IMG/VR virus record: IMGVR_UViG_3300028299_000004
Direction: 5' to 3' (one strand)
DNA length: 64,000 bases
DNA from: an uncultured virus (IMG/VR IMGVR_UViG_3300028299_000004)
Lineage: Duplodnaviria; Heunggongvirae; Uroviricota; Caudoviricetes
This document shows, piece after piece, positions 25,046 through 45,139 of the stretch. Under the pieces are notes generated by a model, which was not told the origin of the DNA, did not search any database, and was given only the letters and a program-made list of their open reading frames with translations. Position 1 is the stretch's first letter, and each line of letters begins with the position of its first letter. The translations under genes and the position numbers were made by a program.

Positions 25046-25495
25046 ACAATGGTGGTATTATACCACAACTTCTACGCCACAAGCACAATGTAACCATTCA
25101 CTTTGTGTGACGCTAGGTTGGTTCCTCAACCCAAAATTTCTTATATTTATAGCAGCATTTATATCCCTATCGTGTTTTTTACCACAGATGGAACAAACCC
25201 ATTCCCTATTATTTAAAGCCAATTCTTTATTAATTGTTCCACAAGAACTACAAGTTTTTGATGAAGGATCAAATCTACCAATTATTGAAAGGTTTTTTCC
25301 ATACCAATCACATTTATATTCCAACATTGACTTGAATTCATTCCACCCCATATCAGATATAGCTCTTGATAGATTATTGTTTTTCAACATATTACTTACA
25401 CCAAGATAAACGAATCTAACTTGACCAAAAATATTAGACATCATTTCTTTTTGATTATTAGTAGGATATATTCTATATTTATATGATTTTAACAT
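25042..25495 (-). mobile_element. tnpB: Internally deleted IS200/IS605 tnpB with its right end (CDS 25058..25495)
   Basis: KSYKYRIYPT..Q...FGQVRFVY joined directly to LGVSNM...AISDMGW.EF..MLEYK...PSSKTCSSCG...W.C..CG..HDRDINAAINI. RuvC-I and the middle of the protein are missing. Hairpin GTGGTA-TTA-TACCAC at 25052-25066. Confidence 0.85.
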
Positions 25496-28376: not shown

Positions 28377-30977
28377 GTGAAATATAAAAATAGAGAAGAT
28401 TTCTTATCAATTATTGATAACTTGAAACTAAAAAATGGTTGTGAAATAGGTGTATATAAAGGCGATTATAGTATTAAAATATTAGAAAAAACAAATTTAG
28501 ATAAACTCTATCTAATAGATCCTTGGAAGCATTTAGATAATTATAAAGATATTAGTAATCATAATGATAATGATTTTAAGGTAATACTAGAAGAAGTAAA
28601 AAATAAAACACATAAATTCAAAGATAGAGTTGAAATTATTCAAGATTTATCTGAGAATGTGAATTCTGATTTCAAAGATAATTATTTTGATTTTATATAT
28701 TTAGATGCAAATCATTCATATGAAGCATCAAAAAAAGATATAGAATTGTGGTATAGTAAAGTAAGACCTGGTGGTATTTTTTCAGGTCATGATTATTTAA
28801 ATGGAATTTTACCACAGGGAGAATTTGGTGTTAAACAGGCTATTGATGAATTTTCTAAAAAAAATAACCTCAAAATACACACTACAGGTGAAGATGAATG
28901 GAAATCGTGGTATATAATTAAACCTATTAACATTGTTCTTTATTGTACAAAAAATTATTTAGATAATTCCTTGTATCTAATAAAAACCTTGAATTCTTTT
29001 CACGATAATTTGATTTTTTATCTTTACACATTAAATTTTGAATATAAATGTGATATAAAAAATGTAAATATAATTAAAATTCAAGATGAACGAATCACTA
29101 CAAATATGAAATTTAAAGGAAACGCCAATGATAACGATAATAAAAATATGTTCATGTCAATTTTCTTTAAAAGTAGAGTTATGCTAGATTCTATAACCAA
29201 TCTAAAATTATCTAATGCTATTTATATGGATTCTGACATACTACCAACAGGAAATATCAATTCTTTATTTAATTATTTTGATAAAATTACAAATTACCCA
29301 TTAATTCAGGAAGGGTTATTTGAATATCAAATAAATTTTGGTCGAGGCAATCCTTTTAAGGATAATGGTTTTGATGAAACTAATATATTGGAATATCCTT
29401 TAATGAATAAATTGTCCATTCCAATAAAAAATAGAACTAAATATTCTAATGCTTCTATTGAATTATATAATAAAACCTGTAAGGAATTTTTAGAAGAATA
29501 TGACAAGTTAAATAATGAGGCTTACAATTTAAGTATTTCAGACATCAATTTCTATTACCCATTTACAGATGAAACTAGTATCAACGTTCTTTTGTGGAAA
29601 TATCAATACAATAATAGATTGCCTTTCCTTCAAATGAACATTGATAATATTGATAATATTAAAGAATTTTATGAATCAAATTATGATAATGAAAAACAAA
29701 TAACAGGATTTGTTAGAGTGCCATCAAAAGAAAAAAAGAAAGATATACTTTTTTTTCATGGTGTGAAAGGTGAAGTCTCTAAAGAAACTTTCAATACTCT
29801 AAATAATATGTTTAAGTATAATTTAAACATAAAAGAAAATAAAATTACATTAACTACAAAATTAGATTTTAATAGAAATTTAAAAGTATCTATATGTGAT
29901 ATAAATGATGATATAATCTATGAAACAAGCACAATTTTTAATAAAAATGTTGAATATTGGTATGCACCTTCAAATAAATTAGAAAAATTTGAAGAAATAA
30001 TTGTTAAAGTTTATGATAATGAAAAACTTATATTCAAAAAAACAATTATTAATGATAATTGTTTATTTTTAAGAAATAATATCTTGGTTAAAAAACCTGC
30101 ATTACTAATACATTCAAATTGTTATGGAGACACATTAAATACAACACCACTAATTAGAACATTATCAAATGCTTATGGTTGCAAAATTGACATTTTTACG
30201 TATTTACCTGAATTGTTTATTAATAGTCCATATATAGATAAAATTTATTCAGTTAATGAAGTCTCAAATAGTAAGCATGAATTATATGAGATTGGAAAAT
30301 CCATGTTAAATAATTATCATAAACAAATAAGAAAAACACATTTAGTAGATTTTTTTACAATAGACTTAGGATTCACATTAACATCTGAAGAAAAACAATT
30401 AGACTTTTTTCCTGATCCTTGGCAAAATAAATTTGAATTACCAGAAAAATATATCTGTATAAACCCCTCAATTACTTGGCCGTCAAAGAGTTGGAAACTA
30501 GAAAATTGGCAGGAATTAATTTCAAAAATAGATATGAAAATTGTTGTTTTAGGTAAAAAAGTTGTTCATCTTGAAAATGATATTAAATCCTTTTCAATTT
30601 TAAAAAATGATAATATAATTGATTTAACTGAGAAGACCACATTATCAGATGCTTGGTATATTATAAATAATGCTGAATCATTTATAACTTTTGATTCAGG
30701 ATTGTTGCATCTTGCAGGAACCACTGATACTCATATTATTCAACTTGGTAGTTATATTCATCCTCTATCAAAAACACCATTTAGAAAAGGGTCACAAACA
30801 TATAAATATACTTTTATTGGTGGTGTATGTAAATTATTTTGTGCTTCAGATTTAAAATATAGCGTAGATGTAGTACAAAGTCTTCAAAATTATCCAATAG
30901 GTAAGCAATGTTTAGAAAAATATTCAGAATATAGATGTCATCCAACACCAGAACAGGTGTTTGATGAGATAAATTAA
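28377..30977 (+). CDS. Multidomain protein: class I SAM methyltransferase, GT-A-like domain and GT9/heptosyltransferase-like domain
   Basis: EIGVYKG...IYLDANHSY...GGIFSGHDY (Methyltransf_24-like); YMDSD (DxD); GDTL..TP...INPS.TW.SK.W...DSGLLHLAG with a C-terminal Cys cluster. Confidence 0.8.
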   Translation: MKYKNREDFLSIIDNLKLKNGCEIGVYKGDYSIKILEKTNLDKLYLIDPWKHLDNYKDISNHNDNDFKVILEEVKNKTHKFKDRVEIIQDLSENVNSDFKDNYFDFIYLDANHSYEASKKDIELWYSKVRPGGIFSGHDYLNGILPQGEFGVKQAIDEFSKKNNLKIHTTGEDEWKSWYIIKPINIVLYCTKNYLDNSLYLIKTLNSFHDNLIFYLYTLNFEYKCDIKNVNIIKIQDERITTNMKFKGNANDNDNKNMFMSIFFKSRVMLDSITNLKLSNAIYMDSDILPTGNINSLFNYFDKITNYPLIQEGLFEYQINFGRGNPFKDNGFDETNILEYPLMNKLSIPIKNRTKYSNASIELYNKTCKEFLEEYDKLNNEAYNLSISDINFYYPFTDETSINVLLWKYQYNNRLPFLQMNIDNIDNIKEFYESNYDNEKQITGFVRVPSKEKKKDILFFHGVKGEVSKETFNTLNNMFKYNLNIKENKITLTTKLDFNRNLKVSICDINDDIIYETSTIFNKNVEYWYAPSNKLEKFEEIIVKVYDNEKLIFKKTIINDNCLFLRNNILVKKPALLIHSNCYGDTLNTTPLIRTLSNAYGCKIDIFTYLPELFINSPYIDKIYSVNEVSNSKHELYEIGKSMLNNYHKQIRKTHLVDFFTIDLGFTLTSEEKQLDFFPDPWQNKFELPEKYICINPSITWPSKSWKLENWQELISKIDMKIVVLGKKVVHLENDIKSFSILKNDNIIDLTEKTTLSDAWYIINNAESFITFDSGLLHLAGTTDTHIIQLGSYIHPLSKTPFRKGSQTYKYTFIGGVCKLFCASDLKYSVDVVQSLQNYPIGKQCLEKYSEYRCHPTPEQVFDEIN

Positions 30978-31371
30978 TTACACATTTACATAGTTCTGAA
31001 TTTTGGTTAAAAATTAAAGAAATAGAAGCATTTGATGAAATAAAATTTACCAATTTTATGATTAATAAAATTGGACTTGGTGCGACCATATTTTATTTTA
31101 ATCTATTTAATAAATATCTAAAAAGTTTAGATTATAACTTTGAAAAGATAATTTCTTATGAAGATGTTATACATTATTTAAAATTTTGGATAAAACTTAA
31201 ATGTTTCAAAAGAAAAAATTTTTCCTTTTGCACTAGGATCATCGAGATTTATTTCAATATCTTTTATTTTATTTTTCATCAAAAATTCTTATCATCCATT
31301 TTTTATGTAATTTTCCCCAGAATGAATATATATTTAAGGGTCAATATTTAACAAACGCATTTCCGTAGAAT

Positions 31372-31405
31372 AAAAAAAACCTCAGAATATTCTGAGGTTT
31401 TTTTT
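31372..31405. terminator. Bidirectional rho-independent terminator
   Basis: A8-CCTCAGAATATTCTGAGG-T8 perfect palindrome, downstream of csp. Confidence 0.85.
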
Positions 31406-31426
31406 GGAAAAAAATGTATATCTTGG

Positions 31427-31621
31427 TTAATCTATTAGTTTAACATTAATTGCATTCAATCCTTTTTTGCCTTCAGTTAGTTCAAAACTAACTTCGTCAT
31501 TTTCAAATACCTTGTCTACTAAACCTGTAGCGTGCACAAAATATTCTTTTCCTGTTTCATTTTCAGCGATAAACCCAAACCCTTTGCTCTCGTTGAAAAA
31601 TTTAATTCTGCCATTCATCAT
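31427..31621 (-). CDS. csp: Cold-shock protein (CspA family)
   Basis: RNP1 KGFGFI and RNP2 FVH; KKGLNAINVK. Confidence 0.95.
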   Translation of the reverse strand: MMNGRIKFFNESKGFGFIAENETGKEYFVHATGLVDKVFENDEVSFELTEGKKGLNAINVKLID

Positions 31622-31690
31622 TTATTATTATTATTTTTTTTTATTGTAGAATAAACTACAAAGTGTATATAGTAAAAAACTTTTTATGTT

Positions 31691-32758
31691 TTAATCTATT
31701 TTTGATAGTTTTTCATTTATATTTTCATTATACCCAATTCTTATTAGTTTAATATCATTTTCTTTACAAAATCTAGTTTTTATACCATCTCTTATTTTTT
31801 GCTTTTTTAAACTTATAGATCCACCAAAAAATTCAATTGGTTTATAATGTTGTTCCCCATCGTATTCTATACAAATATTATATTTTGGTAAATAGAAGTC
31901 AAATGTTAGTTTATTTATATTTTTACAATTATCAAAACTTTTCTGGCACTGATAAAAAACATTTTTCCAATCGAGAATATCTCTTATAATTTTTTCACCA
32001 ATGGATTCTTTACATTTAGGGCATCCCGAACCATTTATATGATCATTTGGTATTTGTTCAAATACTCCATGTTTAGGACAAATTATTTTTACTTTTGTTT
32101 TAGAATTAATGTAATTAGTTAAAGAATAATCATATTTATTATTATGTATTAGATTAGATTTTTCTATAAAAGTATAGATATCATCAAACATATTTTTTTT
32201 GTAACATAGATTACACCCCTGTTTCTTTTTTAGATGTGCATATGGATATTGTTCAAATACTCCATGAATAGGACATATTATCTTAATTTTCGTTTTATTA
32301 TTTTTATAATCAACTAAAGAATAATCATATCTATTTTCGTGAATTTTTTTGCATTCATTAATAAATTCTTCGGTAGTTGGTATATTTTTTTCACAAAATG
32401 GACATTTTTGTTTTAAGTTAATATGATTATTTGGTGTTTGTTCAAATATTCCATGAATAGGACATATTATCTTAATTTTCGTTTTATTATTTTTATAATC
32501 AACTAAAGAATAATCATATCTATTTTCGTGAATTTTTAAACATTTATCTATAAATTCTTTGGTGTTTGGTTTATATTTTTTACTACATTTAGAACAACCT
32601 TGTTTTCTACATATGTGATGATATGGTGTTTGTTCAAATATTCCATGAATAGGACATATTATCTTAACTTTCGTTTTATTATTTTTATAATCAACTAATG
32701 AATAATCGTACTTGTTACTATGGATCAGATTAGATTTTTCTATGAACTTTTTTTTCAA
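31691..32758 (-). CDS. Putative homing endonuclease: four DUF723-like zinc repeats plus Vsr/DUF559-like nuclease
   Basis: Four YDYSLVDY...KIICP.HG.FEQ.P..H....C..C repeats; FDFYLP...IEYDGEQH; TTG start. Confidence 0.8.
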   Translation of the reverse strand: MKKKFIEKSNLIHSNKYDYSLVDYKNNKTKVKIICPIHGIFEQTPYHHICRKQGCSKCSKKYKPNTKEFIDKCLKIHENRYDYSLVDYKNNKTKIKIICPIHGIFEQTPNNHINLKQKCPFCEKNIPTTEEFINECKKIHENRYDYSLVDYKNNKTKIKIICPIHGVFEQYPYAHLKKKQGCNLCYKKNMFDDIYTFIEKSNLIHNNKYDYSLTNYINSKTKVKIICPKHGVFEQIPNDHINGSGCPKCKESIGEKIIRDILDWKNVFYQCQKSFDNCKNINKLTFDFYLPKYNICIEYDGEQHYKPIEFFGGSISLKKQKIRDGIKTRFCKENDIKLIRIGYNENINEKLSKID

Positions 32759-32784
32759 ACTTATTCTTACTTTTCTTTTATATA
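32757..32784 (+). promoter_or_regulatory. Putative early/middle promoter AAACW-N15-17-TATA (representative copy, before polB)
   Basis: 17-nt spacing also before the topoisomerase, DinG, 17897, 43473 and gp55-like genes; 15-nt spacing before uvsY, csp and 40533. Confidence 0.5.
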
Positions 32785-32804
32785 TTAAAAAATGATTATT
32801 CTTT

Positions 32805-34325
32805 ATGATTGTAGATTATGAATATAAATCAAACCAACTAATCCTATCTTATATAGGAGATGATGGTAATATAAAATTAAAATATTATAAATGGGGGAAT
32901 CCAACAAAATTTGTTATTTGTGATGATGATGACCCAGATAAACATGGTAAGTATGTCACATGGGATGGTAAATCAGTAAAAGAAATCTATACTAGAAATC
33001 CAAATAGATATTCTATTTATGAATTCTTAGATAAGTTACCAAAAGAAGAACAGGATAAAATATTTCCATATAAAGAACCTAATATATTTTTTATAGATAT
33101 TGAGAATGAGATATTGGATAAAAAACCAGAACCACATTTAGCGGAGAGTCGTATTCAAACAATATCAATAGTTTTTAAGGATAAAGTTATGGTTATGGGT
33201 GTAGAGGAATTAACTGACACACAATCAGATTCAATAAATGAAGATATAAATAATTATTTTGAAAAATTCGGAATAAAGTATAAGTTTAAATATACTAGAT
33301 ATAAAAATGAATATGACTTACTATTAAATTTCTTTACAAAACTTGTTCCTAACATGCCTGTTATGACAGGATGGAATTTCCTAGATTATGACTGGGTATT
33401 TCTTGTTAACAGAGCGAGGAGAATTGGAATAGACCCATCAGTATCATCATATACGAAGAAATTAGTTACTAGTTTTGATGATACAATATATTGGGAGATG
33501 CCCGCACATAGAATCATTGTTGATTATATGGAATTATATAAAAAGTGGGATACATCTATTAAAGTAAAAGAAAGTAATTCATTAGATTTTGTATCTGATA
33601 ATGTTCTTGGTGTTAAAAAAGTTAATTATGAAGGTAATCTCAAAATATTACATGATACTGATTATAAGAAGTTCGTTTATTATAACGCGGTAGACTCTAT
33701 ATTGGTTCAGAGAATCCATGAAAAAATGAGATATATTGATGTCCTATACGGCATCGCAACACTTTCTGGAATTAAACTCTTGGACGCGTACAATACATTA
33801 CCAGTTACAGAAGGTATTTTAAGAAAAAAATTAAAAACACAAAAGAATGTTGTTTTATGTAAAGGTGATGATGTTGAAACTGAAGGTGTTGAGGGTGCTT
33901 GGGTTATGGTACCAAAACGAGGTATGGCACAATGGACCTGCTGCTATGATTTCGCCTCCCTATATCCAACAACTATGATACAATTTAACATATCAGCGGA
34001 CTCATATAAAGGGTTTACAGATAGAGAAATCATAAGATCTAGAAAGGCAAATAGATTAAAATATTCTGATAAATATAATAGCCTAGAAAAAGTAGATAAA
34101 GAGACTTCTGTATTTAATAATCACAGAATAGAAATAGAAAAAGATGATATAGTATTATTAAATGGGTCGGTATTTAAGAAAGAAGTTGGTGTTGTAAGTG
34201 AAGTTATGAGTGAGATTTATTCTGGTAGAAAATCATATAAGAAAAAAATGTTTTTAGCTCATAGTGAAATGGAAGAATACAAACAAGAAATGGATAAAAT
34301 AGAAAAAGAGTTATGTAAAATGTAA
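32805..34325 (+). CDS. Family B DNA polymerase, N-terminal subunit (exonuclease and motif A) of an apparently split gene
   Basis: DIE (ExoI), GWNFLDYD (ExoII), YNAVD (ExoIII), YDFASLYP. Ends after RKSYKKKM with no KxxxNSxYG or YGDTDS motif. Confidence 0.88.
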   Translation: MIVDYEYKSNQLILSYIGDDGNIKLKYYKWGNPTKFVICDDDDPDKHGKYVTWDGKSVKEIYTRNPNRYSIYEFLDKLPKEEQDKIFPYKEPNIFFIDIENEILDKKPEPHLAESRIQTISIVFKDKVMVMGVEELTDTQSDSINEDINNYFEKFGIKYKFKYTRYKNEYDLLLNFFTKLVPNMPVMTGWNFLDYDWVFLVNRARRIGIDPSVSSYTKKLVTSFDDTIYWEMPAHRIIVDYMELYKKWDTSIKVKESNSLDFVSDNVLGVKKVNYEGNLKILHDTDYKKFVYYNAVDSILVQRIHEKMRYIDVLYGIATLSGIKLLDAYNTLPVTEGILRKKLKTQKNVVLCKGDDVETEGVEGAWVMVPKRGMAQWTCCYDFASLYPTTMIQFNISADSYKGFTDREIIRSRKANRLKYSDKYNSLEKVDKETSVFNNHRIEIEKDDIVLLNGSVFKKEVGVVSEVMSEIYSGRKSYKKKMFLAHSEMEEYKQEMDKIEKELCKM

Positions 34326-34334
34326 AATAAAATT

Positions 34335-35147
34335 ATGGAAGAAAAAACAAATGAAAGATTTAATATTGAGTTTGATGTTGAGAAAACATTCTTAGCGTTA
34401 ACTAGTTATAATGTAAGATTCGGACAAGAATATACATTAGAGCCACTTTTACCAAAAGGTATAAAAGAAGATGAATATGGGAATTATGTATATACTATCG
34501 GAGAAAGTAGAACAATGTTTACCGCACACCTAGATGACGCGTCTTGGGGTAATAGTGGGAAAAAGGTTACTCATAGAAGAGATGGTGATTTTATAACAAC
34601 TGATGGTTCAACAATTTTAGGAGCGGATGATAAAGCTGGTGTTACGATTTTAATGTATATGATAAATAATAGAATACCAGGAACTTATTATTTCTTTTTA
34701 GGTGAAGAGAGTGGAATGCAGGGAGCGAAAGGAATTTTGAGTATAAAAAGAGAATGGTTTACTGAGAATTTTGATAGATGTGTCTCCTTTGATAGAAGAG
34801 GATATGGTTCAATTATCTCTAGACAAATAGGTAGAAAAGGATGTTCCGATGAATTCGTAGACACATTAAAATCCCAATATGACTCATTAGGACTTCCACA
34901 TAGAAATGACCCAGGTGGAATATATACCGATAGTGCTTCATTTATTGGAATAATCCCAGAATGTACCAATATATCAGTTGGATATTTTAATGAACACACA
35001 TCATATGAAAGACAGAATATAATTTACTTAGAAAAACTTTGTAAAGCGTCAATTAAGATTGATTGGGAATCATTACCAACAGTTGGTGTTAAAGGTGGTG
35101 GAGATGATAGATATTATGGATTTGGGGAATATGGTGATTGGTATTAG
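34335..35147 (+). CDS. M28/M20-like zinc peptidase
   Basis: HLDD, GADDKAG, GEE, FDRRG, YTDS, NISVGY..EH. Confidence 0.8.
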   Translation: MEEKTNERFNIEFDVEKTFLALTSYNVRFGQEYTLEPLLPKGIKEDEYGNYVYTIGESRTMFTAHLDDASWGNSGKKVTHRRDGDFITTDGSTILGADDKAGVTILMYMINNRIPGTYYFFLGEESGMQGAKGILSIKREWFTENFDRCVSFDRRGYGSIISRQIGRKGCSDEFVDTLKSQYDSLGLPHRNDPGGIYTDSASFIGIIPECTNISVGYFNEHTSYERQNIIYLEKLCKASIKIDWESLPTVGVKGGGDDRYYGFGEYGDWY

Positions 35148-35207
35148 TAATTGGAAAAATAACACTATATCATATAACTATATAATATTATAAAACTATT
35201 AAAATTT

Positions 35208-35603
35208 ATGGAAAATATGGAAGAAAATAAAGATAAGAAGGTTAATTTTTATGGTAAGATTGTTCGTATGCCTAAAAACACAAAAGCGTCCCATTCTATT
35301 TCTTTCCTCGAAAATATAAAAGTTTCTAAACAAAAACTATGGTATATTCTTATTCAAAAACAAGATGATCAACTTCAAATGATTAAATACAATAATAAAA
35401 TGGGAGTTGATATGAATAAATTTGTTGAGAGTCTTAAATTATATTATGAACATAATGAGAATATATCAGAACATATACAAAATCTTCAAATAGACGGCAA
35501 TGATAAGTTTTCAATAATAATGAATATTCCTAAGGTTGAAATAGATGGTAAGAAACTTATATCAATAATAACAGAAGACCTAATAAAATTACTTTATAAG
35601 TAA
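35208..35603 (+). CDS. Hypothetical protein
   Basis: 131-aa ORF. Confidence 0.65.
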   Translation: MENMEENKDKKVNFYGKIVRMPKNTKASHSISFLENIKVSKQKLWYILIQKQDDQLQMIKYNNKMGVDMNKFVESLKLYYEHNENISEHIQNLQIDGNDKFSIIMNIPKVEIDGKKLISIITEDLIKLLYK

Positions 35604-35713
35604 AATTTCCTCATTCCTTCACTTTTTTTCGTTATTCTAAAATCTACTATTTTACTACCGTCATTTTAAGACAGTGGTAATAAGATTTTATCAAAATCAA
35701 ACAAAAGAAAATT

Positions 35714-37894
35714 TCATAAAACAAATTCATTTTTGATTTTATGAATTACCATTTCAGGTGTTATTGATTTTGAACATATAAATTTATCCACATTGTCTTT
35801 ATTTACAGGACACCAATTCCAATCTCCTCTATCAAAATCAAATCTTGTATCATTAAAACATCCGTTACAAACATTTGGATTATGGATTCTTATAATATTT
35901 TCTTTGAATTCAAATTCAGGTTTACTAAATCCAGAAATCATAACAGTTTTCTTACCTAACGCCCATGTTAACCACGATAATCCAGAGGATACCGTTATCA
36001 AAAATTCGGAATGATATATTATATTCATTAATTCTTTTAGTGGTAGACCTGTTCTATCAATTATATTTGTCAGATTAGTTTTTTCTTTACTAACAACAAC
36101 TACTTGAAAACCAAGAGATTTTAATTCATCACATAGTATTTGCCATCCATTTGGATAATTCCAATATTTCGCACCCGCGGTTGAATGTTCTGATATACAG
36201 ATATATTTTCCTTTTATTGGTTTTTCACCCTTTTCAAATGATACTTTAGGTCTAATTTCTTTGAATTCTAATCCAAGTATATCTGAAATAGTTTGTTGTA
36301 AAGGAATTGTCCTATAATCATTTGGGTGTAAATCACGATTGCCACCCCATGGTGGTGAAAACCAACCAGTTTTATAGGTAGCGTATATTGGTGGAAAGTC
36401 ATAATCAAATCCAACAAATTTTATATCTGGATATTCTTTTTCAAATAAATAATTATGATGTGTTGTACAATAAACATTACAATTATGTTTTCTTCTGAAT
36501 TCTTCTACATAAGGAACCCAACATATGGTATCACCCAATGATTTACTTTCAAATTTAATAAATACATTTTTATTTTCAAAATTGGTAATTACTTCGTAAT
36601 CTTCATTATCTTCTAAATCTTTCATTGAAATTCTATATTCATTAAAACATTTCTTATTTAGTTTAGTCCAATATCTTTTACCATTTTCTAATATACCATC
36701 TTTTGGTATTTGAGTTTCATATACAATGTTATTACTCTTTAAATCATATATCTTTATATCAAATTTTTTTTTCATTGTTATTGACGATGATAAAGTAATT
36801 GATAAACCATCATTCATATTGATATCGGTGGTTATTTTAGTTTTTATTGGATTTTGTATTTTTATTGGTGTATTATCATATATGTCAATTATTTTATCTC
36901 TAACTCTTTCATTATCAAATTTTTCATCTATTTCTTTTATATTATAATATATTTGTTCTAGTAATTTTACGATATTTGACCAATCATATTCTTTCACTGA
37001 CTCAAGTGATTTTTGTTGTAAAAGATTATAATTATTAATTACATATCTTATTTTTTTTACAACGTCATTGGTATCTAATTTAGTTCTTATTAAACCACCA
37101 ATTTCTTTTTTTCCACTGTATGTCCCAACAACTAGTAATCCACAGGATAATGATTCTAGTAATGTTAGATTTGGTTGCCCAGCTTCTAAATTAGATTGGT
37201 GTAAGAATATTGTATGTGAATTATAAATTTCAACCAACTCATCTTCTCCTGGATCACTTATAATATTCAATCTATCATATTCTAATAAATCTTTATGGTG
37301 GTCAAAAAATGATTTATTTCCATTTGGACCAACTATAGTTATTGGTAAATCTAGTTCTTTCGCCGCTTCAATCGCGTACCGAAATCCCTTTCTATCTTCT
37401 TCTGGTTTACCAATCAATCCATTATTCGCGACACATAGGAGTTTATGTGATAACTTTTTATAATCCTTAAATTTATATTTTTCTGTATCAACACCATGAG
37501 ATAAGAAAAATAATTTATCTGTTTGATCAAAATAGTCAATCAAATATTCAGCGTGAGTGATAGATATTATTGATTTTTTCATCGCATCCAAATTATCTTT
37601 AAAAACTTTTGAATCTTTTCCCCACTTGTACGCGTGATGATCATGTAAGGAAAATAAAAATCTTTTCTTATGAATTTCATAAATATCAGTTACCGCTTGA
37701 TTGTACATATGACAATGAATTATATCATAATTCTTATCAACGAATTTTTGTGGTACACAAATATCAACAGTATGACCTAATTTTTCCAATTGTATTTTAT
37801 AGTTCCATATAACTTTTTCAATCGCACCCCATCCCTTTGGTGGTATTTCTATATTGCCTGGACTTATATGACATATTTTTAGTTTATCTTTCAT
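35714..37894 (-). CDS. GT4 glycosyltransferase fused to a TibC/AAH-like autotransporter O-heptosyltransferase domain
   Basis: N-terminal IPPKGWGAIEK, RKG and EAGQPNLTLLESLSCG (GT-B/GT4). C-terminal SLGDTICWVPY.EEFR.KH.C, PLQQ...DILGL, STA.AKYWN...GW, SSGLSWL.WA, ISGFS....EF, CNGC...WCP...C. Confidence 0.85.
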   Translation of the reverse strand: MKDKLKICHISPGNIEIPPKGWGAIEKVIWNYKIQLEKLGHTVDICVPQKFVDKNYDIIHCHMYNQAVTDIYEIHKKRFLFSLHDHHAYKWGKDSKVFKDNLDAMKKSIISITHAEYLIDYFDQTDKLFFLSHGVDTEKYKFKDYKKLSHKLLCVANNGLIGKPEEDRKGFRYAIEAAKELDLPITIVGPNGNKSFFDHHKDLLEYDRLNIISDPGEDELVEIYNSHTIFLHQSNLEAGQPNLTLLESLSCGLLVVGTYSGKKEIGGLIRTKLDTNDVVKKIRYVINNYNLLQQKSLESVKEYDWSNIVKLLEQIYYNIKEIDEKFDNERVRDKIIDIYDNTPIKIQNPIKTKITTDINMNDGLSITLSSSITMKKKFDIKIYDLKSNNIVYETQIPKDGILENGKRYWTKLNKKCFNEYRISMKDLEDNEDYEVITNFENKNVFIKFESKSLGDTICWVPYVEEFRRKHNCNVYCTTHHNYLFEKEYPDIKFVGFDYDFPPIYATYKTGWFSPPWGGNRDLHPNDYRTIPLQQTISDILGLEFKEIRPKVSFEKGEKPIKGKYICISEHSTAGAKYWNYPNGWQILCDELKSLGFQVVVVSKEKTNLTNIIDRTGLPLKELMNIIYHSEFLITVSSGLSWLTWALGKKTVMISGFSKPEFEFKENIIRIHNPNVCNGCFNDTRFDFDRGDWNWCPVNKDNVDKFICSKSITPEMVIHKIKNEFVL

Positions 37895-37899
37895 AATAT

Positions 37900-40533
37900 T
37901 TAATATATTTTTTCATAACATTTTGTAAATAAATGACTTTCTAGATTTAAGATTTTTTTCTCAACTTTTGAGATTATATCCGTTCTATCACCATAAAAAT
38001 CTATTAAATTTTTCTTTATTAATAATGGTGAATCTTTATCCGAGAATAGATACGCGTCGTTTGATAAATCATTATTCATAACCCAATTTTTAAATCCATC
38101 AGTTATTTTTTCATTACCATTTAATAATAATATCCACTCTTCTTGACCTTCCATATATTTAACCCCCAATAATCTAGATATATTTTCCCAATATTGGTCA
38201 TCTTTATTTACAGAATTATTAAATTCGTGGACAATAAAATTTACATTGTCCTTATGATTTTCTTCATATGTTCTATTTAATAAATCTTCATCTTCTTTTG
38301 TTCCATCAAAGAAACAATCACAAGTTGAAATATTAACAACTGTGCTAATACTTTTAACAGAATCAATTACTTTTTTTATACTATTAAATAAATTTGTATT
38401 ATAATTTATAACAGTTCCGAGTTTGATGGTTTTTTTAATCTTATTTTCAAATGTTCCTCTATTTGATAATAAATCATCAAAATTATCTTTATTTATTGGC
38501 CCAAATGTTTCTTCCTCTAATAACTTGTTTGTATTGGAATCCAAGATTCTAGTTTCAATTACGATATTATCCTCTTTAATTTCTATTTCTTCATTGAAAA
38601 TTATTTTATTATTTATTTCTCTCTCATATGATTTAATGGCATTTCCATCAACAATGTAATTTACTATTAATTTACGATTATCTATAACATTGTTTGATGA
38701 AAACCATACAACAAAAGAATTTTTATCTTTTACTTTCAGATATGTTAAATATTCTACACCAGAGAATATATTTATTTTACCTGTAAATATCTCATCTTCT
38801 GTTGTTTCTTGAATAAAAATTTTATCTAGTTTGTTTTCTAGTTTTTTGTAAAAATATCTTTCTAAGAAATTATCACAATCTAATTTTTTACACTCCTCGT
38901 TGAATTTTTCTGGTGTTCTTGGATTAGTAAATGTATTTTTATATAAATCAATATCAATTATAAAAAATACAGTTTTAAAAACATCTAATTTATTATCAGA
39001 AAATTTCATAAAATATCCACTCTTTTTCCCAACATCAATACCTTTAGAAATACTATCTATCTTATTAATATCTTCATCACTAAAAATATAATCATATGTT
39101 ACATTTATAACTCTTGTATATCCCAATGATGACGCGAGTTGAACGCTGTTTTCAATATTATTTAAAACTGTTAGAGATTGATTCAATTTATTTTTTCTTG
39201 GGATTTTATCAAAAATTATATCAGCTCTAAATTCATTTGTTTCATACCAATAATTTTTATATAACGAATGTTCAATCAATGGATTATAATTATCATATAT
39301 ATAATAATCAACCATATTTTGTATCTCCCTATCAACTGGTATATGAGAAGATAATATTATTTTTTTACCATGTTTCTTTATAGATTTTATACACTCTTTT
39401 GTTATATCACTTTTAATCTCAGTATCTGGATATGTTGATAAAATGAAAATTTCATCAGTATTTTTTGGTATTATTTTTTCCTCTGTTTTTATAATTGGTT
39501 TTGTTTCAACTTTTTGAAAATATAAATCTTTAGAAAAATCTTGTTTTTCACTATCAAATTTAAAATCATTAAAATTATATACTGTTTCCGAATCTGTTCT
39601 TATATCACCAGATAAATAAGTTATTAGCTTTTCTTTATCATATTTACCACAATAAACATCCAATGGGAATAAAAATTGTGGAATCTTATATTCTAACGCT
39701 TCTTTTATAACAAGTGGATTTAATTCTTTATCAAAACGAAATCCCATTGATGTAAATAAGAATATATCACACGATTTATAGAAATCATCAACATCTTTTC
39801 TTTCTCCCCAAATAATACAATTGTCTGGTTTATTTTTCATAAGTGGTTCCCAATAATGTTGAAAATTTCCAGCTTGGTTACCAACAAAATGAAATTTAAT
39901 TTTTTTATCAGTTAATTGTCTAGCGATTTCAAACGCGTACGCTTGATTTTTACGAGGTGTAAATAATCCAACATTTAATACATGTTTATACTCTGGATCT
40001 AATCCTAGTTTCAACATTGATAATTTCTTTTTAGATAATAATCTTTTTTTATTTTCAATGGGGTATTCAACCACATCTATTGGAACTCCAAATCTATTAA
40101 ATTTGAAACAATTATATTGGCTAACAAAGATAAATTTATCTGGAAAGAACATTTTATTATCAACATTATAATCGGAAGAGTGAGTTGTCTCAAATATTTT
40201 ATATCTTCTATTGGAATTATATAATCTTGTGGATATCTCATATTCCATAAACATCTCTGGTATTTCCTCCAAATGAATTATATCTGGATTAATCCTATTT
40301 ATTATAGTAAACAATTCTGTTTTATCATCACCAAGTGTGAAAAATTTATCATTATCAACTAATTGTTTTATTCTATTTTTTTGAATAACATAATGTTGAG
40401 ATATATTTCTATATTCTATTACATATACTTCATAATAATCTTTTATTAATTCTATTCTCTTTACTAAAACCTGGGGACCCCCCCCAGTTGACATATGTGG
40501 AGCAATTGATAATAATTTCTTTTTCATAAACAA
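37900..40533 (-). CDS. Multidomain glycosyltransferase (GT4 N-terminus plus further GT-like domains)
   Basis: PHMSTGG.PQ, VGLFTPRKNQ, ELNPLVIKEAL; middle domain ILSSH...DY.IYD..NP. Confidence 0.8.
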   Translation of the reverse strand: MFMKKKLLSIAPHMSTGGGPQVLVKRIELIKDYYEVYVIEYRNISQHYVIQKNRIKQLVDNDKFFTLGDDKTELFTIINRINPDIIHLEEIPEMFMEYEISTRLYNSNRRYKIFETTHSSDYNVDNKMFFPDKFIFVSQYNCFKFNRFGVPIDVVEYPIENKKRLLSKKKLSMLKLGLDPEYKHVLNVGLFTPRKNQAYAFEIARQLTDKKIKFHFVGNQAGNFQHYWEPLMKNKPDNCIIWGERKDVDDFYKSCDIFLFTSMGFRFDKELNPLVIKEALEYKIPQFLFPLDVYCGKYDKEKLITYLSGDIRTDSETVYNFNDFKFDSEKQDFSKDLYFQKVETKPIIKTEEKIIPKNTDEIFILSTYPDTEIKSDITKECIKSIKKHGKKIILSSHIPVDREIQNMVDYYIYDNYNPLIEHSLYKNYWYETNEFRADIIFDKIPRKNKLNQSLTVLNNIENSVQLASSLGYTRVINVTYDYIFSDEDINKIDSISKGIDVGKKSGYFMKFSDNKLDVFKTVFFIIDIDLYKNTFTNPRTPEKFNEECKKLDCDNFLERYFYKKLENKLDKIFIQETTEDEIFTGKINIFSGVEYLTYLKVKDKNSFVVWFSSNNVIDNRKLIVNYIVDGNAIKSYEREINNKIIFNEEIEIKEDNIVIETRILDSNTNKLLEEETFGPINKDNFDDLLSNRGTFENKIKKTIKLGTVINYNTNLFNSIKKVIDSVKSISTVVNISTCDCFFDGTKEDEDLLNRTYEENHKDNVNFIVHEFNNSVNKDDQYWENISRLLGVKYMEGQEEWILLLNGNEKITDGFKNWVMNNDLSNDAYLFSDKDSPLLIKKNLIDFYGDRTDIISKVEKKILNLESHLFTKCYEKIY

Positions 40534-40643
40534 TAGTTTTTCTTTTTATTATTTATAGATAAAAGTGTTGATAGTTTTAAAATATTTCAAATTTCTTGTA
40601 TTCTCTTTTTTATATATAAGAAGAAAAGTTTTTTTATAACTAA

Positions 40644-41840
40644 ATGGGATTCAAAACTAATACTTTATATCTAAGTGGTGGAACTTCGGGAGTTTTATTA
40701 ACAATATCAGGTGGATTATCAAGTACATCTGAGTATGGATCATTATATACAAATGTTGATGGTAAACTAATATATGAAGAAACTAATGGTGATCATTATA
40801 TTTTGGGTCCAACTGGTGGTACTAGTTTATCCGCATTTACATATACTGACTCACCTGGTAGTTTAAATATAGTTCAAGATGATGGTCAAACTTTCCCATT
40901 AGATTTAACAACATCATTAGATAATAGATATTCAGCTAGTGGTAGTTCTGGTACAAGTGGAACATCTGGAACAAGTGGTGTTGATGGTGATTTCCTTGGT
41001 TCAAGTGGAACCTCAGGTGATGATGGAACATCAGGTACAGATGGCACTTCAGGTGATGATGGAACTTCAGGCACAGACGGCACTTCAGGAACCTCAGGAA
41101 CTTCAGGCACAGATGGTACATCAGGCACAGATGGAACCTCAGGAACTTCAGGCACAGACGGCACTTCAGGAACATCGGGCACAGATGGCACTTCAGGCAC
41201 AGATGGTACTTCAGGAACTTCAGGCACAGATGGAACTTCAGGCACAGATGGTACTTCAGGAACTTCAGGTGATGATGGCACTTCAGGCACAGATGGAACT
41301 TCAGGTGATGATGGCACTTCAGGCACAGATGGTACTTCAGGAACTTCAGGTGATGATGGCACTTCAGGCACCGATGGTACTTCAGGCACAGACGGCACTT
41401 CAGGAACCTCAGGCACAGATGGAACTTCAGGCACAGATGGTACTTCAGGAACTTCAGGTGATGATGGCACTTCAGGCATAGATGGTACTTCAGGCACAGA
41501 TGGCACTTCAGGAACTTCAGGCACAGATGGCACTTCAGGAACTTCAGGCACAGATGGCACTTCAGGCACAGACGGCACTTCAGGAACTTCAGGCACAGAT
41601 GGAACCTCAGGAACTTCAGGTGATGATGGAACTTCAGGTACAGATGGCACTTCAGGAACTTCAGGTGATGATGGAACTTCAGGCACAGATGGTACTTCAG
41701 GCACAGACGGCACTTCAGGAACTTCAGGTGATGATGGCACTTCAGGCACAGATGGCACTTCAGGTGATGATGGAACTTCAGGTGATGATGGCACTTCAGG
41801 CATGATAATTATAAAGTTATATATATTAAAAGAGATATAA
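40644..41840 (+). CDS. Collagen-like Gly-Thr-Ser/Gly-Thr-Asp/Gly-Asp-Asp repeat protein (putative fibre), C-terminus apparently lost
   Basis: About 90 Gly-X-Y triplets; late-type promoter at about 40610; repeat stops abruptly near 41800. Confidence 0.75.
40941..41801 (+). repeat. 9-nt-unit coding tandem repeat (GGN ACT TCA / GGC ACA GAT / GGT GAT GAT)
   Basis: Visible directly as a GC-rich island. Confidence 0.95.
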
Positions 41841-42259
41841 AAGATGTATTAGTGAGTTATTATCATTTTTTAAAAAGAGGTGATAATTTTCCAGAATTTA
41901 AAGAATGGATTTTTATGAACCCAAAAGAAATTGGAAATAAGTATGTTGATGAAAATCTAGATCCACATATTATATTAGAACCAAAAGATTACATTGACAG
42001 ATGGAAATTACATTATAATGGTTGGATAAAATATAAGAATAATTTATTAATAGTTGATTACGAAGATTTATTAAATGATTTTCCATTACAAAAAGAAAGA
42101 TTAGAAAATTATTTAGATAAGAAAGTATCAAATAAATTACCTGATAAAAACGATAAATTTTTACCAAATATAAAACCAAATAAAGGAATAATTGGGTGGC
42201 ATAAAGAATTTATGAATGAAGAATTAATTAAAAGAATTAATAAAAGAATTAATATGTGA
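41801..42259 (+). pseudogene. Sulfotransferase, N-terminally truncated
   Basis: Frame from 41801 reads [23 protein letters not shown] (3'-phosphate-binding motif), then W..H..GW, YEDL and KGIIG.HK. The 5'-PSB loop is absent and there is an in-frame TGA at 41786. Confidence 0.75.
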
Positions 42260-43418
42260 ATGCCCAACTATAAGCAGCACCTCCACCAGGACTTCTTCTT
42301 TTAACTGATCCACTAGATTGTATAAATAAAAAGGTATGATTACCACAAATTGCAACCGCCGAGCATTTATTTACAATACTATTATCACCAATACCCGCTT
42401 TATCATTATATCCCCACCCCCATCCTTTTCCAGCAGGGTCTATAAGAATAGCAGGATAAGGTTGATACCATGCTCTATAATGATATATAGAACAAAAAGT
42501 TTTGGTACCATATACAGCGACTGGTGTGCTTTGATCATCTAGATCACCTTGACCTAGTTGAGCTTCAGAACCCCTACCCCAAGACCAAAGGGCATCACTT
42601 TTATCTATTCCTACAATAGCATCTGTACCAACAGATATTTGAACAAATGTGTGATTACCACATACCGCGACAGGAGTACTTTGATGATTATACCAAGTTC
42701 CGTGACCTAAACAACCTCTTGTGTCGTTTCCCCACGTCCATCCCATTCCATGTATGTCTACCCCCATTGCCACTTTGTCACTAACGGAAATGAAAGAAAA
42801 TGTGTGATTACCACATACAGCGACTGGTGTTGATCTATCAGCTACTGTGTTATCTCCAAGTACACCATCAGAATTTGCTCCCCAACTCCACGCTAGTTCA
42901 TGATTATCAATCGCGACAGTATTCATTTGTGTTGAAAATCCAGCTTGGTTATAATTAACATGACAAAAAGTGTGATTACCACATACAGCGACTGGTGTAC
43001 ATTTATCCGCTGTTGAATTATTACCTATCTTACCTCTAGAACCATATCCCCAACCCCACATTTGACCATTATTATCCAATCCCATTGAAAATCTTTCTGC
43101 CATAATACAGGCTTGAATATATACAAAAGTGTGATTGCCACAAACTGCAACTGGTGTTGAATATCCAGTTTGATTATTACAGCCCAATTCACCTCTATTA
43201 TTCCAACCCCATGCCCACGCCATACCATTTTTATCTAATCCTATTGAGTGATTTAATCCTCTACTTATTTGTATGAATGTGTGATTACCACACACAGCGA
43301 CTGGTGTCGAACGATTTGTTCCACTTCTGTCTCCATTTACACCATAATCACCATTTCCCCAACACCAACCCATTTGATGATTATCAATTCTTGGAGTATA
43401 ATTATATACGTCAGCCAT
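42249..43418 (-). CDS. RCC1-like repeat beta-propeller protein
   Basis: Seven roughly 50-aa repeats of W.WG.N..G.LG......STPVAVCGNHTF. Confidence 0.85.
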   Translation of the reverse strand: MADVYNYTPRIDNHQMGWCWGNGDYGVNGDRSGTNRSTPVAVCGNHTFIQISRGLNHSIGLDKNGMAWAWGWNNRGELGCNNQTGYSTPVAVCGNHTFVYIQACIMAERFSMGLDNNGQMWGWGYGSRGKIGNNSTADKCTPVAVCGNHTFCHVNYNQAGFSTQMNTVAIDNHELAWSWGANSDGVLGDNTVADRSTPVAVCGNHTFSFISVSDKVAMGVDIHGMGWTWGNDTRGCLGHGTWYNHQSTPVAVCGNHTFVQISVGTDAIVGIDKSDALWSWGRGSEAQLGQGDLDDQSTPVAVYGTKTFCSIYHYRAWYQPYPAILIDPAGKGWGWGYNDKAGIGDNSIVNKCSAVAICGNHTFLFIQSSGSVKRRSPGGGAAYSWAFTY

Positions 43419-43472
43419 TTAGTAAACTTTTAATTTATTTTTCTTTATATATTAAAAAACAAGGTTTAAAAA

Positions 43473-45095
43473 ATGAAAAAATATTGTGTTTATACAGTTT
43501 CAATAGGAGAATATTATGATCATATAAAAAAAATAACTCATCCAATAATTAAAAAATACGCTGATAAAATTGGTGCTGATTTTATAGTAGAAGATAAACC
43601 AAATCCTAATTTCATAACTCAAAAATGGCAAAAATTTCAAATTTATAATTTTTTAAATAAATATGAAAGAGTATTATATTTAGATACTGATTTAATTATA
43701 AGAGATGATTGCCCAAATTTATTTGATATCGTTCCAGATGATAAACTTGGTATGTTTAATGAAGGAAAATATACATCAAGATTTGAATACATACAAGATG
43801 CGAGTAAAATATATGAAATAGAACTTTATAAATGGAATAATAAATTTTATAATTCGGGTGTGATGGTTATATCTAGAATCCATAAGCAACTATTCAAATT
43901 ACCACTCTTAACAGATACAATAGAAACTGATCAACCTTATATTAATTTAAAAATTGCTGTTGATAAAATAGAAATGTTCGATTTATCTTATAAATTTAAT
44001 AGAATGGACATATTAGATAAAGAAACTGGAATTCATAGATTTGATTCATATATTATTCATTATGCTGGCGCTCCACAAGATCAATTATTCCCAATTCTTC
44101 TCAATGATGTTCAAGAATTAAATAATACTTCCCCTTACTATGAAAAATATTCTAAACAAAAAATGGTAATTAAAGTTTCCGCTGGTATGGGTGATCAATT
44201 ATGTGCGGAACCAGTTATTAGATATATTAGAAATACATATTTTTCATCTGATAATATAGATATTACTGTAGTTTCCCATCATCCTAGGTTATTTGAACAT
44301 ATTAAAGGTATAACTTTAATGGATTATACTCAATATAAAGATATTAGAGGTGTATTAGAATTACATATGACACCAGATGACGAACATTCAACACATGGTA
44401 TGAGTCATGTTATGTTTCATCCAACAGATTTCGCGTCAATGAGTACTATTAAAATGACAATACCACTTAAAGATAAACCTATTAAATGTGTTGTACACCA
44501 AGAAGATATAGATGAATTAATTGATATAGTGGGTAATAAAGTGAAATTGGAAGATTTAATTGTTGTTCATCCAGGTCGTTGGTGGAATAGTAAGACATTT
44601 CCTAGTAAATGGTGGCAAGAAATTGTTGATGGTTTATCTAAGAGTGGTCATAAATTAGCAATAGTTGGAAAAACATTATCTTCAAAAATTGGAGAAGAAC
44701 AAGGTTATCAAAAAATAAAATGCCCTAAAGGTTCTTATGATTTTAGAGATTTAACATCTTTGGGTGGATTAATTGCTTTGATTGGAAAGGCGAAATGTAC
44801 ATTAACTAATGATAGTTCACCACTTCATATCGCGGGTGTGTTTAGAAATTGGATTGTTGTCATACCAACAGCTAAACACCCAGACCATATTTTACCATTT
44901 AGAGCTAATGATGAAGGACATATAGAACAATATTATAAATCAAAAGCACTTTATAAAAGATTAACTATAAAAGATTTGGATCTTTGTTGGTTATCTGAAG
45001 AACCAGATACTATTGATAAGGTAGTTGGTGATATTTTAAATTATATTCCAAAACCACAAGAAGTTATTGATGAAATTAATAATATTAAATTTTAA
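43473..45095 (+). CDS. GT8-like glycosyltransferase fused to a GT9-like domain
   Basis: YLDTDL, YNSGVM, DQ..IN, IHYAG; then GMGDQLC.EP, HPG..W.SK.FP, NDSSPLHIAG. Confidence 0.8.
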   Translation: MKKYCVYTVSIGEYYDHIKKITHPIIKKYADKIGADFIVEDKPNPNFITQKWQKFQIYNFLNKYERVLYLDTDLIIRDDCPNLFDIVPDDKLGMFNEGKYTSRFEYIQDASKIYEIELYKWNNKFYNSGVMVISRIHKQLFKLPLLTDTIETDQPYINLKIAVDKIEMFDLSYKFNRMDILDKETGIHRFDSYIIHYAGAPQDQLFPILLNDVQELNNTSPYYEKYSKQKMVIKVSAGMGDQLCAEPVIRYIRNTYFSSDNIDITVVSHHPRLFEHIKGITLMDYTQYKDIRGVLELHMTPDDEHSTHGMSHVMFHPTDFASMSTIKMTIPLKDKPIKCVVHQEDIDELIDIVGNKVKLEDLIVVHPGRWWNSKTFPSKWWQEIVDGLSKSGHKLAIVGKTLSSKIGEEQGYQKIKCPKGSYDFRDLTSLGGLIALIGKAKCTLTNDSSPLHIAGVFRNWIVVIPTAKHPDHILPFRANDEGHIEQYYKSKALYKRLTIKDLDLCWLSEEPDTIDKVVGDILNYIPKPQEVIDEINNIKF

Positions 45096-45139
45096 TAGTT
45101 CAGCGGTTTTTAATATATAGAAATAAAATATATTTAACA

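Follow-up and report, generated by a model that had tools for sequence, protein, structure and literature searches.

Candidate TibC-type glycosylation of collagen-like fibre proteins encoded by a huge T4-like phage

What do the transferases carried by large phages modify: the host surface, the phage DNA, or the proteins of the virion? The question is raised by a locus at positions 28377 to 45095 of a 64,000-nucleotide stretch from an uncultured virus (Caudoviricetes; IMG/VR record IMGVR_UViG_3300028299_000004), and the whole of this stretch is called the window below. Four multidomain transferase genes, named here by the length of their products in amino acids (aa), lie at this locus together with a gene for a collagen-like protein. 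One product, the 726-aa protein, carries a domain that resembles the Escherichia coli glycosyltransferase (GT) TibC. We consider it reasonably probable that these enzymes carry out cytoplasmic O-glycosylation of the phage's collagen-like fibre proteins, a system that is predicted here from sequence and modeled fold.

The TibC-like domain of the 726-aa protein

The 726-aa protein (35714..37894, minus strand) consists of a GT4-type half (residues ~1 to 330; Glycos_transf_1/Glyco_trans_1_4 at residues 161 to 288) and a TibC/AAH-family domain (residues ~341 to 723; Glyco_transf_9 at residues 554 to 661). The initial annotation had described the C-terminal half as TibC/AAH-like, and the comparisons agreed. 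The NCBIfam model TIGR04414 scored 277.7 bits against a curated cut-off of 200, covering profile positions 15 to 372 of 374. The TibC chains of PDB entry 4RAP matched with an E value of 1.2e-51 (query residues 375 to 716 on TibC residues 38 to 379), and no other PDB sequence matched the C-terminal half at an E value of 1 or below. An AlphaFold2 (AF2) model of the domain, built on 20 relatives with a predicted local distance difference test score (pLDDT) of 88.3, showed N-terminal strands followed by alternating helix-strand lobes. Foldseek aligned this model with TibC 4RAP at a template modeling (TM) score of 0.87 over 380 columns, compared with 0.53 for E. coli WaaF and 0.39 to 0.49 for WaaC chains. 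The model TIGR02193 for lipopolysaccharide (LPS) heptosyltransferase I reached only 20.8 bits against its cut-off of 185.3, and with the lower TM scores this separates the domain from WaaC and WaaF. Clustering with these two enzymes, which the initial annotation had named as a result that would refute its proposal, is thus not seen. Judged by sequence and modeled fold, the C-terminal half is a member of the TibC/AAH family.

Residues named in the TibC paper (PMC4358343) were mapped onto the 726-aa protein. The catalytic base of TibC, Asp110, corresponds to D455, and the position is Asp in 143/143 family rows (26/26 canonical rows and 117/117 others). The donor contacts Thr226, Lys230, and Trp305 are kept as T572, K576, and W641. 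The CxxC...C...C cluster that had been picked out by eye aligned as expected, with C676, C679, C695, and C707 on the iron-finger cysteines C339, C342, C358, and C370 of TibC; with all four cysteines conserved, an iron finger is predicted. Two TibC-specific features, ADP recognition and the dodecamer ring, appear not to be kept. Arg286, which touches the adenine N1 in TibC (PMC4358343), is L622 here; the residue is Arg in 26/26 canonical rows but in 35/117 others. The beta-hairpin thumb, which builds the TibC dodecamer ring that binds TibA (PMC4358343), is represented by a segment of 15 residues here, compared with 25 in 26/26 canonical rows and 15 to 16 in 65/117 other rows. A dodecamer ring is therefore doubtful for the 726-aa enzyme.

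ADP-heptose had been put forward as the sugar donor. Retention of T572, K576, and W641 favors a heptose-like donor, as does S636 at the position of Pro300, which is the D,D-heptose selector of TibC and is Ser in AAH (PMC4358343). However, the replacement of Arg286 by Leu622 speaks against it, and so does the absence of gmhA from the five related large phage genomes that were searched (0/5). No rfaE domain II match above the cut-off was found in the same five genomes. Matches of about 55 bits in 2/5, against a cut-off of 181.5, were generic cytidylyltransferase-like and lay far from the TibC gene, and no NCBIfam model matched the 'cytidylyltransferase like protein' of Microcystis phage Mel-JY01. 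ADP-heptose is thus not established as the donor, and the transferred sugar is possibly not heptose.

Collagen-like genes near TibC-like genes

The collagen-like gene of the window (40644..41840, plus strand, 398 aa; Pfam Collagen, E value 1e-41) is divergent from the transferase operon (minus strand), with a 110-bp intergenic region (40534..40643) between them. Its product contains 6 + 90 Gly-X-Y triplets, the 90 being uninterrupted, with GTS (52), GTD (24), and GDD (11) as the main types. Position X is Thr in 76 triplets and Asp in 11, and at position Y the counts are 53 for Ser and 36 for Asp. Ser and Thr make up 130 of the 270 repeat residues; Pro, Lys, and Arg are all absent from the repeat. 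The underlying DNA forms a tandem array (41006-41802) with periods that are multiples of 9 and matches of 64 to 80%, and the array is therefore diverged and not a fresh expansion. The repeat is bounded by an orphan N-terminal part of about 100 aa and an 11-aa tail. Among 319 candidates of 218 to 697 aa, no relative of the N-terminal 105 residues was found at an E value of 1e-3 or below, and the matches of the protein to PHROG tail-fibre families rest on the repeat only. The intergenic region contains a single copy of TATAAATA (40550-40557, minus strand). This motif is not enriched in the window (36 copies versus 28.65 expected; 8/100 shuffles reach 36), and its position upstream of the operon therefore carries little weight.

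Relatives of the TibC-like domain are widespread. The database search returned 416 of them at an E value of 1e-10 or below, many fused to GT4, FkbM, GT2, or Methyltransf_24 domains, and at least 573 IMG/VR stretches encode one. The viral sample consisted of 80 loci kept from these stretches, loci L001 to L003, and the window, and comprised 70 distinct TibC open reading frames (ORFs) of 341 to 1603 aa. A collagen-like neighbor was defined as an ORF encoding 8 or more Gly-X-Y triplets in a row in the fetched flank of up to 10 kb, where many flanks ended at contig ends. By this definition, 43 of the 70 distinct TibC loci had a collagen-like neighbor, and the runs were mostly about one-third Gly with Ser and Thr making up half or more.

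Scans with the portal and UvsW proteins of the window were intended as a base-rate control but returned 8 close relatives and 0 loci and were unusable. Whole-record scans of nine phage records with the Collagen model were used instead. Five of these are complete genomes of 318 to 548 kb that were chosen for size alone. Among the matches listed, each of the five carried collagen genes at 1 to 2 places, and the TibC gene was located 0.7 to 6 kb from one such place in 5/5 (across the contig ends in four). The rough combined p value for the five genomes, with distances read by hand, was 0.001.

The cultured phage Mel-JY01 (PP395634) contains an open 1016-aa collagen-like ORF (L002:2-3049, plus strand; Pfam Collagen, E value 1.4e-66). 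The ORF is uncalled in the deposited annotation, where minus-strand hypothetical genes are drawn over it. Next come a 'structural protein' gene and, after it, a 1226-aa GT4..TibC fusion, which the annotation labels 'methyltransferase FkbM'.

The association was also found on bacterial chromosomes. Among 185,579 species genomes scanned, 85 stretches were obtained. Of the 80 loci kept from them, 30 carried a Gly-X-Y repeat ORF in the flank. The co-occurrence with Gly-Ser/Thr repeat genes that the initial annotation had suggested checking is thus present in both phages and bacteria. On the chromosomes of Methylobacter luteus, Polaromonas, and others, among them a complete Methylobacter chromosome and one of 5.2 Mb from Arenicellales, collagen-like ORFs of 99 to 290 aa were located 8 to 170 bp from the TibC-like gene. 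The N-termini at four bacterial collagen-like loci resembled signal or lipoprotein peptides as judged by eye, with no predictor, and the Pfam Collagen model matched in three of the four bacterial loci on which it was run, with L101 giving no match. Compact cassettes of a TibC-like gene with one or two small Gly-Thr/Ser collagen-like proteins were noted at L115:8863-11065, L121:8929-11113, L101:9902-12523, L117:9974-11408, and similar loci. Their hosts are Methylobacter, Arenicellales, and betaproteobacteria, and in Arenicellales a DUF6502 gene lies directly upstream.

The family was further divided by a FastTree tree of 144 rows, in which long branches were flagged, E. coli TibC was absent, and rows were not independent. 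A clade of 26 rows (support 100), with Acetobacteraceae, Trinickia, Selenomonadaceae, and Lentisphaeria-type members, had a collagen-like neighbor in 0/26. In Trinickia the gene after the TibC homologue encodes an AIDA-repeat adhesin, which is the canonical pairing. A group of 113 rows (support 94) contains the window and all viral rows but two, and a Ser/Thr collagen-like neighbor was present in 65/113. The chromosomal loci described above, with collagen-like ORFs of 99 to 290 aa, belong to this group. The Fisher p value for 65/113 versus 0/26 was 1e-8, calculated on rows that are not independent. In Acetobacter and Gluconobacter (L146:11158-14310 and L161:11100-13520), the next gene encodes a large Hint_2-domain protein and not an AIDA-type adhesin. 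The Hint_2 protein may be a further acceptor class of the canonical branch.

Other transferase genes and genome context

All of the domains named in the initial annotation for the four transferase genes were recovered with Pfam. The 877-aa gene (37900..40533, minus strand; Glycos_transf_1 at residues 175 to 285, E value 9e-11) is directly upstream of the 726-aa gene in the same operon. Its TTG start at 40533 is uncertain, and an ATG two codons inward is the start in the ESM Atlas record. The protein has a GT4-type domain (residues ~1 to 330) followed by a C-terminal part of about 550 aa without a Pfam family, here called X2. The N-terminal ~320 aa are 62 to 71% identical in L085, L010, L090, and L001. 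X2 recurs in 16 further viral TibC loci and in 8 from genomes, where it is often part of a GT4-X2 gene immediately upstream of the TibC ORF.

The 866-aa protein (28377..30977, plus strand) is composed of four parts: an S-adenosylmethionine methyltransferase (residues 23 to 140; Methyltransf_24, E value 7e-17), a part called X1 (~186 to 465), a beta-sandwich (~476 to 571), and a GT9-type domain called fam2 (572 to 865; Glyco_transf_9 at residues 670 to 790, E value 3e-13). The fam2 domain of this protein has a CxxxC...C...C cluster of its own. A hidden Markov model (HMM) of the TibC branch matched residues 476 to 794 with an E value of 1.2e-18, and 58 of 120 database homologues of the fam2 family have a strong TibC domain on the same polypeptide as well. 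In an AF2 model of the protein (pLDDT 79.1), TibC was the best PDB match (E value 5.8e-14, TM score 0.48), and WaaF matched at 2.7e-9. LPS heptosyltransferase models scored 29 to 40 bits against cut-offs of 134 to 200. X1 (about 280 aa) was found in 26 other viral loci, mostly within TibC ORFs. Neither X1 nor X2 could be named, as no Pfam family matched even at E values up to 5, and the viral clusters of the ESM Atlas scored 0.86, which is below its own bar and serves as a lead only.

The 540-aa protein (43473..45095, plus strand) joins a GT8 domain (Glyco_transf_8, residues 36 to 133) to a GT9-type part (residues ~228 to 493; Glyco_transf_9 at residues 361 to 493), which is a distant fam2 member (fam2 HMM, 79.6 bits, residues 228 to 481). 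A PDB search with this protein gave no TibC match and WaaF only at an E value of 0.42, and the LPS heptosyltransferase model scored 27 bits against a cut-off of 134.6. A 55%-identical GT8-GT9 orthologue is present in L086 upstream of the same conserved gene. No membrane-like segment was found in any of the four enzymes (maximum 19-residue hydropathy 1.26), and, like TibC, they would work on protein in the cytoplasm ahead of assembly.

The evidence that the four genes form one system is partial. GT4 domains were present in 37 of 42 TibC fusion ORFs, and the other additions in these ORFs were FkbM (6), other methyltransferases (5), GT25 (3), GT32-like (2), DUF6165 (2), GT2 (1), and pyruvyl transferase (1). 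Two further genes lie between the collagen-like gene and the 540-aa gene. One encodes a 135-aa sulfotransferase fragment (41852..42259, plus strand); Sulfotransfer_1 scored 23.2 bits against a cut-off of 22 and covered only model positions 106 to 191 of 255, so that the ORF is a fragment and probably a remnant, as had been suspected. The other encodes a 389-aa RCC1-repeat propeller (42249..43418, minus strand; Pfam RCC1, E value 2e-31). None of the other 83 viral TibC loci and none of the 80 genome TibC loci contained a homologue of RCC1 or of the sulfotransferase fragment. The proposal that the phage builds, extends, and caps glycans thus gains from the recurrence of the transferase domains fused or adjacent to TibC domains, but no such recurrence supports a part in it for the RCC1 and sulfotransferase genes. 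The domains and genes said to surround the fibre gene are present, but the four transferase genes are scattered over 17 kb and do not form one unbroken cluster. Between 28377..30977 and the other transferases lie a DUF723/zinc-ribbon ORF, a DNA polymerase B fragment, and a peptidase-like ORF, all unrelated. Within the phage's own lineage (L001, L010, L085, and L090), only the pair 37900..40533 and 35714..37894 is syntenic.

The window (~27% GC) has genes for a T4-type portal, a gp23-type capsid protein, and a prohead protease, together with genes for UvsW, a gyrase B/topoisomerase subunit, and a fragment of a family B polymerase, and head and baseplate genes adjoin the transferase cassette. 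The nearest records by capsid protein are LR756501 and LR756503 (735-kb 'uncultured phage' assemblies, 67% identity), which we take to be of the type named 'huge phages' by Al-Shayeb and colleagues in 2020, followed by other assemblies of 460 to 640 kb. From these relatives and the T4-type genes, the source of the window is therefore judged to be a huge AT-rich T4-like phage.

Several features of the window outside the cassette were also noted. The family B DNA polymerase ORF (32805-34325, plus strand) contains the exonuclease part and only about the first 130 positions of the polymerase domain, and the gene appears to be split or interrupted. It is preceded by the DUF723/zinc-ribbon repeat ORF (31691-32758, minus strand), a paralogue of which (50157-51071, plus strand) immediately precedes the portal gene. 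Two paralogous HNH homing-endonuclease-like genes (53198-54598, minus strand, and 59433-60983, plus strand; PHROG 3339, E values 4e-126 and 2e-104) flank a block with the capsid and prohead protease genes. A 145-aa TnpB/IS605 OrfB fragment with a Cas12f1-like TNB domain and HTH_OrfB lies at 25058-25495 (minus strand). Two very large ORFs, 7650-10886 (1078 aa) and 10900-15018 (1372 aa), both on the plus strand, matched no Pfam family; the sole match of the 1078-aa ORF was PHROG 29329, of unknown function.

What the transferases may act on

The reading that we favor is that soluble cytoplasmic enzymes of the phage build O-linked glycans directly on protein. The TibC-like domain would start the glycan, with Asp455 as the base, by moving a sugar from a nucleotide sugar onto Ser/Thr hydroxyls. 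The likeliest acceptors would be proline-free Gly-Thr/Ser-Ser/Asp collagen-like fibre proteins, one of them the product of 40644..41840 and others perhaps encoded elsewhere in the genome. The GT4, GT8, fam2-GT9, X1, and X2 domains would extend the glycan, and the methyltransferase would cap it. Besides shielding the fibre, the glycan may let the triple helix fold or persist. The stabilizers named for collagen are proline and Lys-Asp or Lys-Glu pairs (PMC11923368); the repeat has neither proline nor Lys/Asp or Lys/Glu pairs, and the glycan may therefore stabilize the triple helix. According to the same source, Thr-containing triplets are overrepresented in viral and bacterial collagen-like proteins, and (Gly-Pro-Thr)10 is triple helical only if galactosylated (PMC11923368, citing Bann 2000). 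The directly supported elements of this reading are the family assignment, the fold, the retained catalytic and metal residues, the fusions that recur, and the placement near such repeats; from them we infer which acceptor and sugar are used, in what order the steps run, and what the phage gains. A wider proposal, which we hold more tentatively, is that the distinct TibC/AAH branch with a short thumb and frequent loss of the adenine-contacting Arg is a dedicated 'collagen glycosylase' in hundreds of large aquatic phages and some bacteria. Its sugars would replace hydroxyproline and salt bridges in proline- and lysine-free Gly-Thr/Ser helices, which could then fold into fibres, and its donor may not be ADP-heptose.

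Several observations weigh against glycosylation of the collagen-like fibre. In four records chosen for a collagen-free flank, the nearest collagen match was approximately 10, 36, 47, and at least 75 kb from the TibC gene. With these four added to the five chosen by size, the combined p value over all nine genomes, with distances read by hand, was 0.003. LR756501 carries further collagen giants at 104-123, 257-260, and 394-421 kb, so that the one beside its TibC gene is one among many. Outside the repeat, the collagen protein of the window shows no similarity to that of L001. In L085 and L090, the homologue of 45140..46006 directly adjoins the transferase pair, and no collagen gene separates them. 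The GC content is 39% for the RCC1 gene and 51% for the collagen repeat, compared with 24 to 27% for neighboring genes. Since 40534..45139 (the collagen gene, sulfotransferase fragment, RCC1 gene, and GT8-GT9 gene) is missing in L085 and L090 and has raised GC, it is probably an acquired variable insert. Situated in a stretch of foreign composition, with an orphan N-terminus and a scant C-terminal domain, the collagen gene may be decaying or its product may not be virion borne. The family tree is a quick FastTree tree with non-independent rows. In aquatic T4-like phages, both transferase and fibre genes accumulate in hypervariable regions (PMC7029224), and such gathering could produce proximity without a shared function. 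However, the two-gene cassettes on ordinary chromosomes argue against the proximity in phages being a mere side effect of a hypervariable region. The divergent layout itself recurs: LR756501 has a collagen gene (minus strand) facing GT4-X (plus strand) and GT4-TibC (plus strand) genes, and the spacer in L001 is 98 bp. The claim that the phage glycosylates its own virion proteins therefore stands in part: the protein-acting family and the co-occurrence with repeats support it, but the orphan N-terminus, the PHROG fibre matches through the repeat only, and the pair without a collagen gene in L085 and L090 do not.

Other targets were weighed as well. The transferases could remodel the host surface (LPS core or O-chain, or capsule), for example to block superinfection, with the collagen gene as a mere hypervariable-region neighbor. 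GT8 and GT9 are classic LPS-core families, the GT9 domains of the 540- and 866-aa proteins weakly match LPS heptosyltransferase models (27 to 40 bits, cut-offs 134 to 170), no collagen gene adjoins the transferase pair in the closest relatives, and tail-fibre hypervariable transferase clusters of pelagimyophages have been read as modifiers of the host O-chain (PMC7029224). We regard this as unlikely, because the key domain passes the TIGR04414 cut-off and scores 20.8 bits against 185 with the LPS heptosyltransferase I model, and its TibC-like fold includes an N-terminal beta-barrel and Cys finger that are not in WaaC/WaaF (PMC4358343). In addition, the branch pairs with collagen-like genes in ordinary bacterial chromosomes, several of them with signal-like N-termini (by eye), and the scan of window ORFs showed no gene for a flippase, ligase, or polymerase. 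Glycosylation of other proteins, either the phage capsid and tail or host surface proteins such as adhesins, also appears unlikely. TibC and AAH act on beta-helical adhesins (PMC4358343), head and baseplate genes adjoin the cassette, and relatives retain the pair without a nearby collagen gene. Glycans on capsid and tail-tube proteins have also been reported for mycobacteriophages (Freeman and colleagues, 2023). Against this, the scanned ORFs of the window gave no match to an AIDA or autotransporter domain, the thumb that forms the TibA-binding ring is shortened (15 residues versus 25 in 26/26 canonical rows), and the statistical link is specific to Gly-Ser/Thr repeats.

The region of 40.5 to 45.1 kb might instead be a recently acquired, partly decayed island in which the collagen ORF is no working substrate. 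The contrast in GC (39% and 51% against 24 to 27%), the truncated sulfotransferase, the absence of the stretch from L085 and L090, and the orphan N-terminal domain and abrupt 11-aa tail of the collagen ORF would all be accommodated. However, 96 triplets are still in frame behind an ATG start in a diverged array (64 to 80% matches), LR756501 shares the divergent collagen/transferase layout, and the GT8-GT9 gene of the same stretch has the 55%-identical L086 orthologue; this reading is quite improbable. T4 glucosylates its DNA and this phage is T4-like, but no DNA glucosyltransferase family was matched and the key domain belongs to a protein-acting family. Modification of phage DNA by these enzymes is very unlikely, and it was rejected because no matching family was found among the cassette domains.

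Glycosylation of the collagen-like fibre can be compared with several known systems. TibC-TibA and Aah-AIDA-I of E. coli (BAHT, TIGR04414, PDB 4RAP/4RB4; PMC4358343) belong to the same family by curated score, and the domain shares with TibC the beta-barrel, the GT-B core, the four-Cys finger, the catalytic Asp, the beta-phosphate Thr/Lys, and the sugar-contact Trp. The proposed likeness is that of a cytoplasmic enzyme adding many sugars to Ser of a repetitive surface protein (PMC4358343). In contrast to TibC and Aah, the 726-aa enzyme is phage encoded and fused to GT4, has Leu for Arg286 and a 15-residue thumb, and is partnered with a collagen-like repeat and not an autotransporter. A functional parallel is SgtA-BclA3 of Clostridioides difficile, in which the transferase SgtA is encoded beside bclA3, a collagen-like gene, and starts O-glycans on Thr of Gly-X-Thr repeats by placing O-linked N-acetylglucosamine (GlcNAc) on Thr of GPT repeats (PMC7157674). 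BclA of Bacillus anthracis is also glycosylated, as given by reference titles in PMC11923368. SgtA differs, however, in being a GT-A enzyme that uses UDP-GlcNAc, with a fold unrelated to that of TibC, and acts on Gly-Pro-Thr repeats at the spore surface; the phage repeat differs from that of BclA3 in having no proline and in belonging to a phage and not a spore. WaaC and WaaF (GT9) have a distantly related GT-B core, and Pfam Glyco_transf_9 matches all three GT9-type domains here, but they lack the beta-barrel and Cys finger of TibC (PMC4358343).

Among viruses, encoded and often multidomain transferases, some with methyltransferase domains, decorate structural proteins in mycobacteriophages, in chlorovirus PBCV-1 (A064R), and on mimivirus fibrils. 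For mycobacteriophages, Freeman and colleagues reportedly described capsid and tail-tube glycans in 2023. The enzyme families and acceptors of these systems differ from those proposed here, and we know of no virus glycosylation system reported with a TibC-type initiating enzyme or collagen-like acceptors. A literature search, judged on titles and abstract openings, likewise found no description of a phage TibC enzyme or of a TibC/collagen-like pairing. What is new here is that a TibC-family enzyme is encoded by a phage, that its proposed acceptors are of another class, and that its assembly state probably differs and its donor possibly differs.

If this reading is correct, large environmental phages would commonly glycosylate their own fibres; the enzyme is encoded on at least 573 IMG/VR stretches. 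Such clusters are usually read as modifiers of the host O-antigen (PMC7029224), and that view would be overturned: in the tail-fibre regions of phages, many transferase clusters of 'LPS-type' would serve to glycosylate the virion and not to modify the host surface. For the TibC/AAH family, which is known from adhesin virulence systems only, this would mean a second and probably larger role with a new acceptor class, and there would be a concrete answer to how collagen-like helices are stabilized without proline or charge pairs. The idea is directly testable, as the cultured Mel-JY01 has the same cassette beside its 1016-aa collagen-like ORF. Glycan coats on fibres would bear on the host range, protease resistance, and immune recognition of phages.

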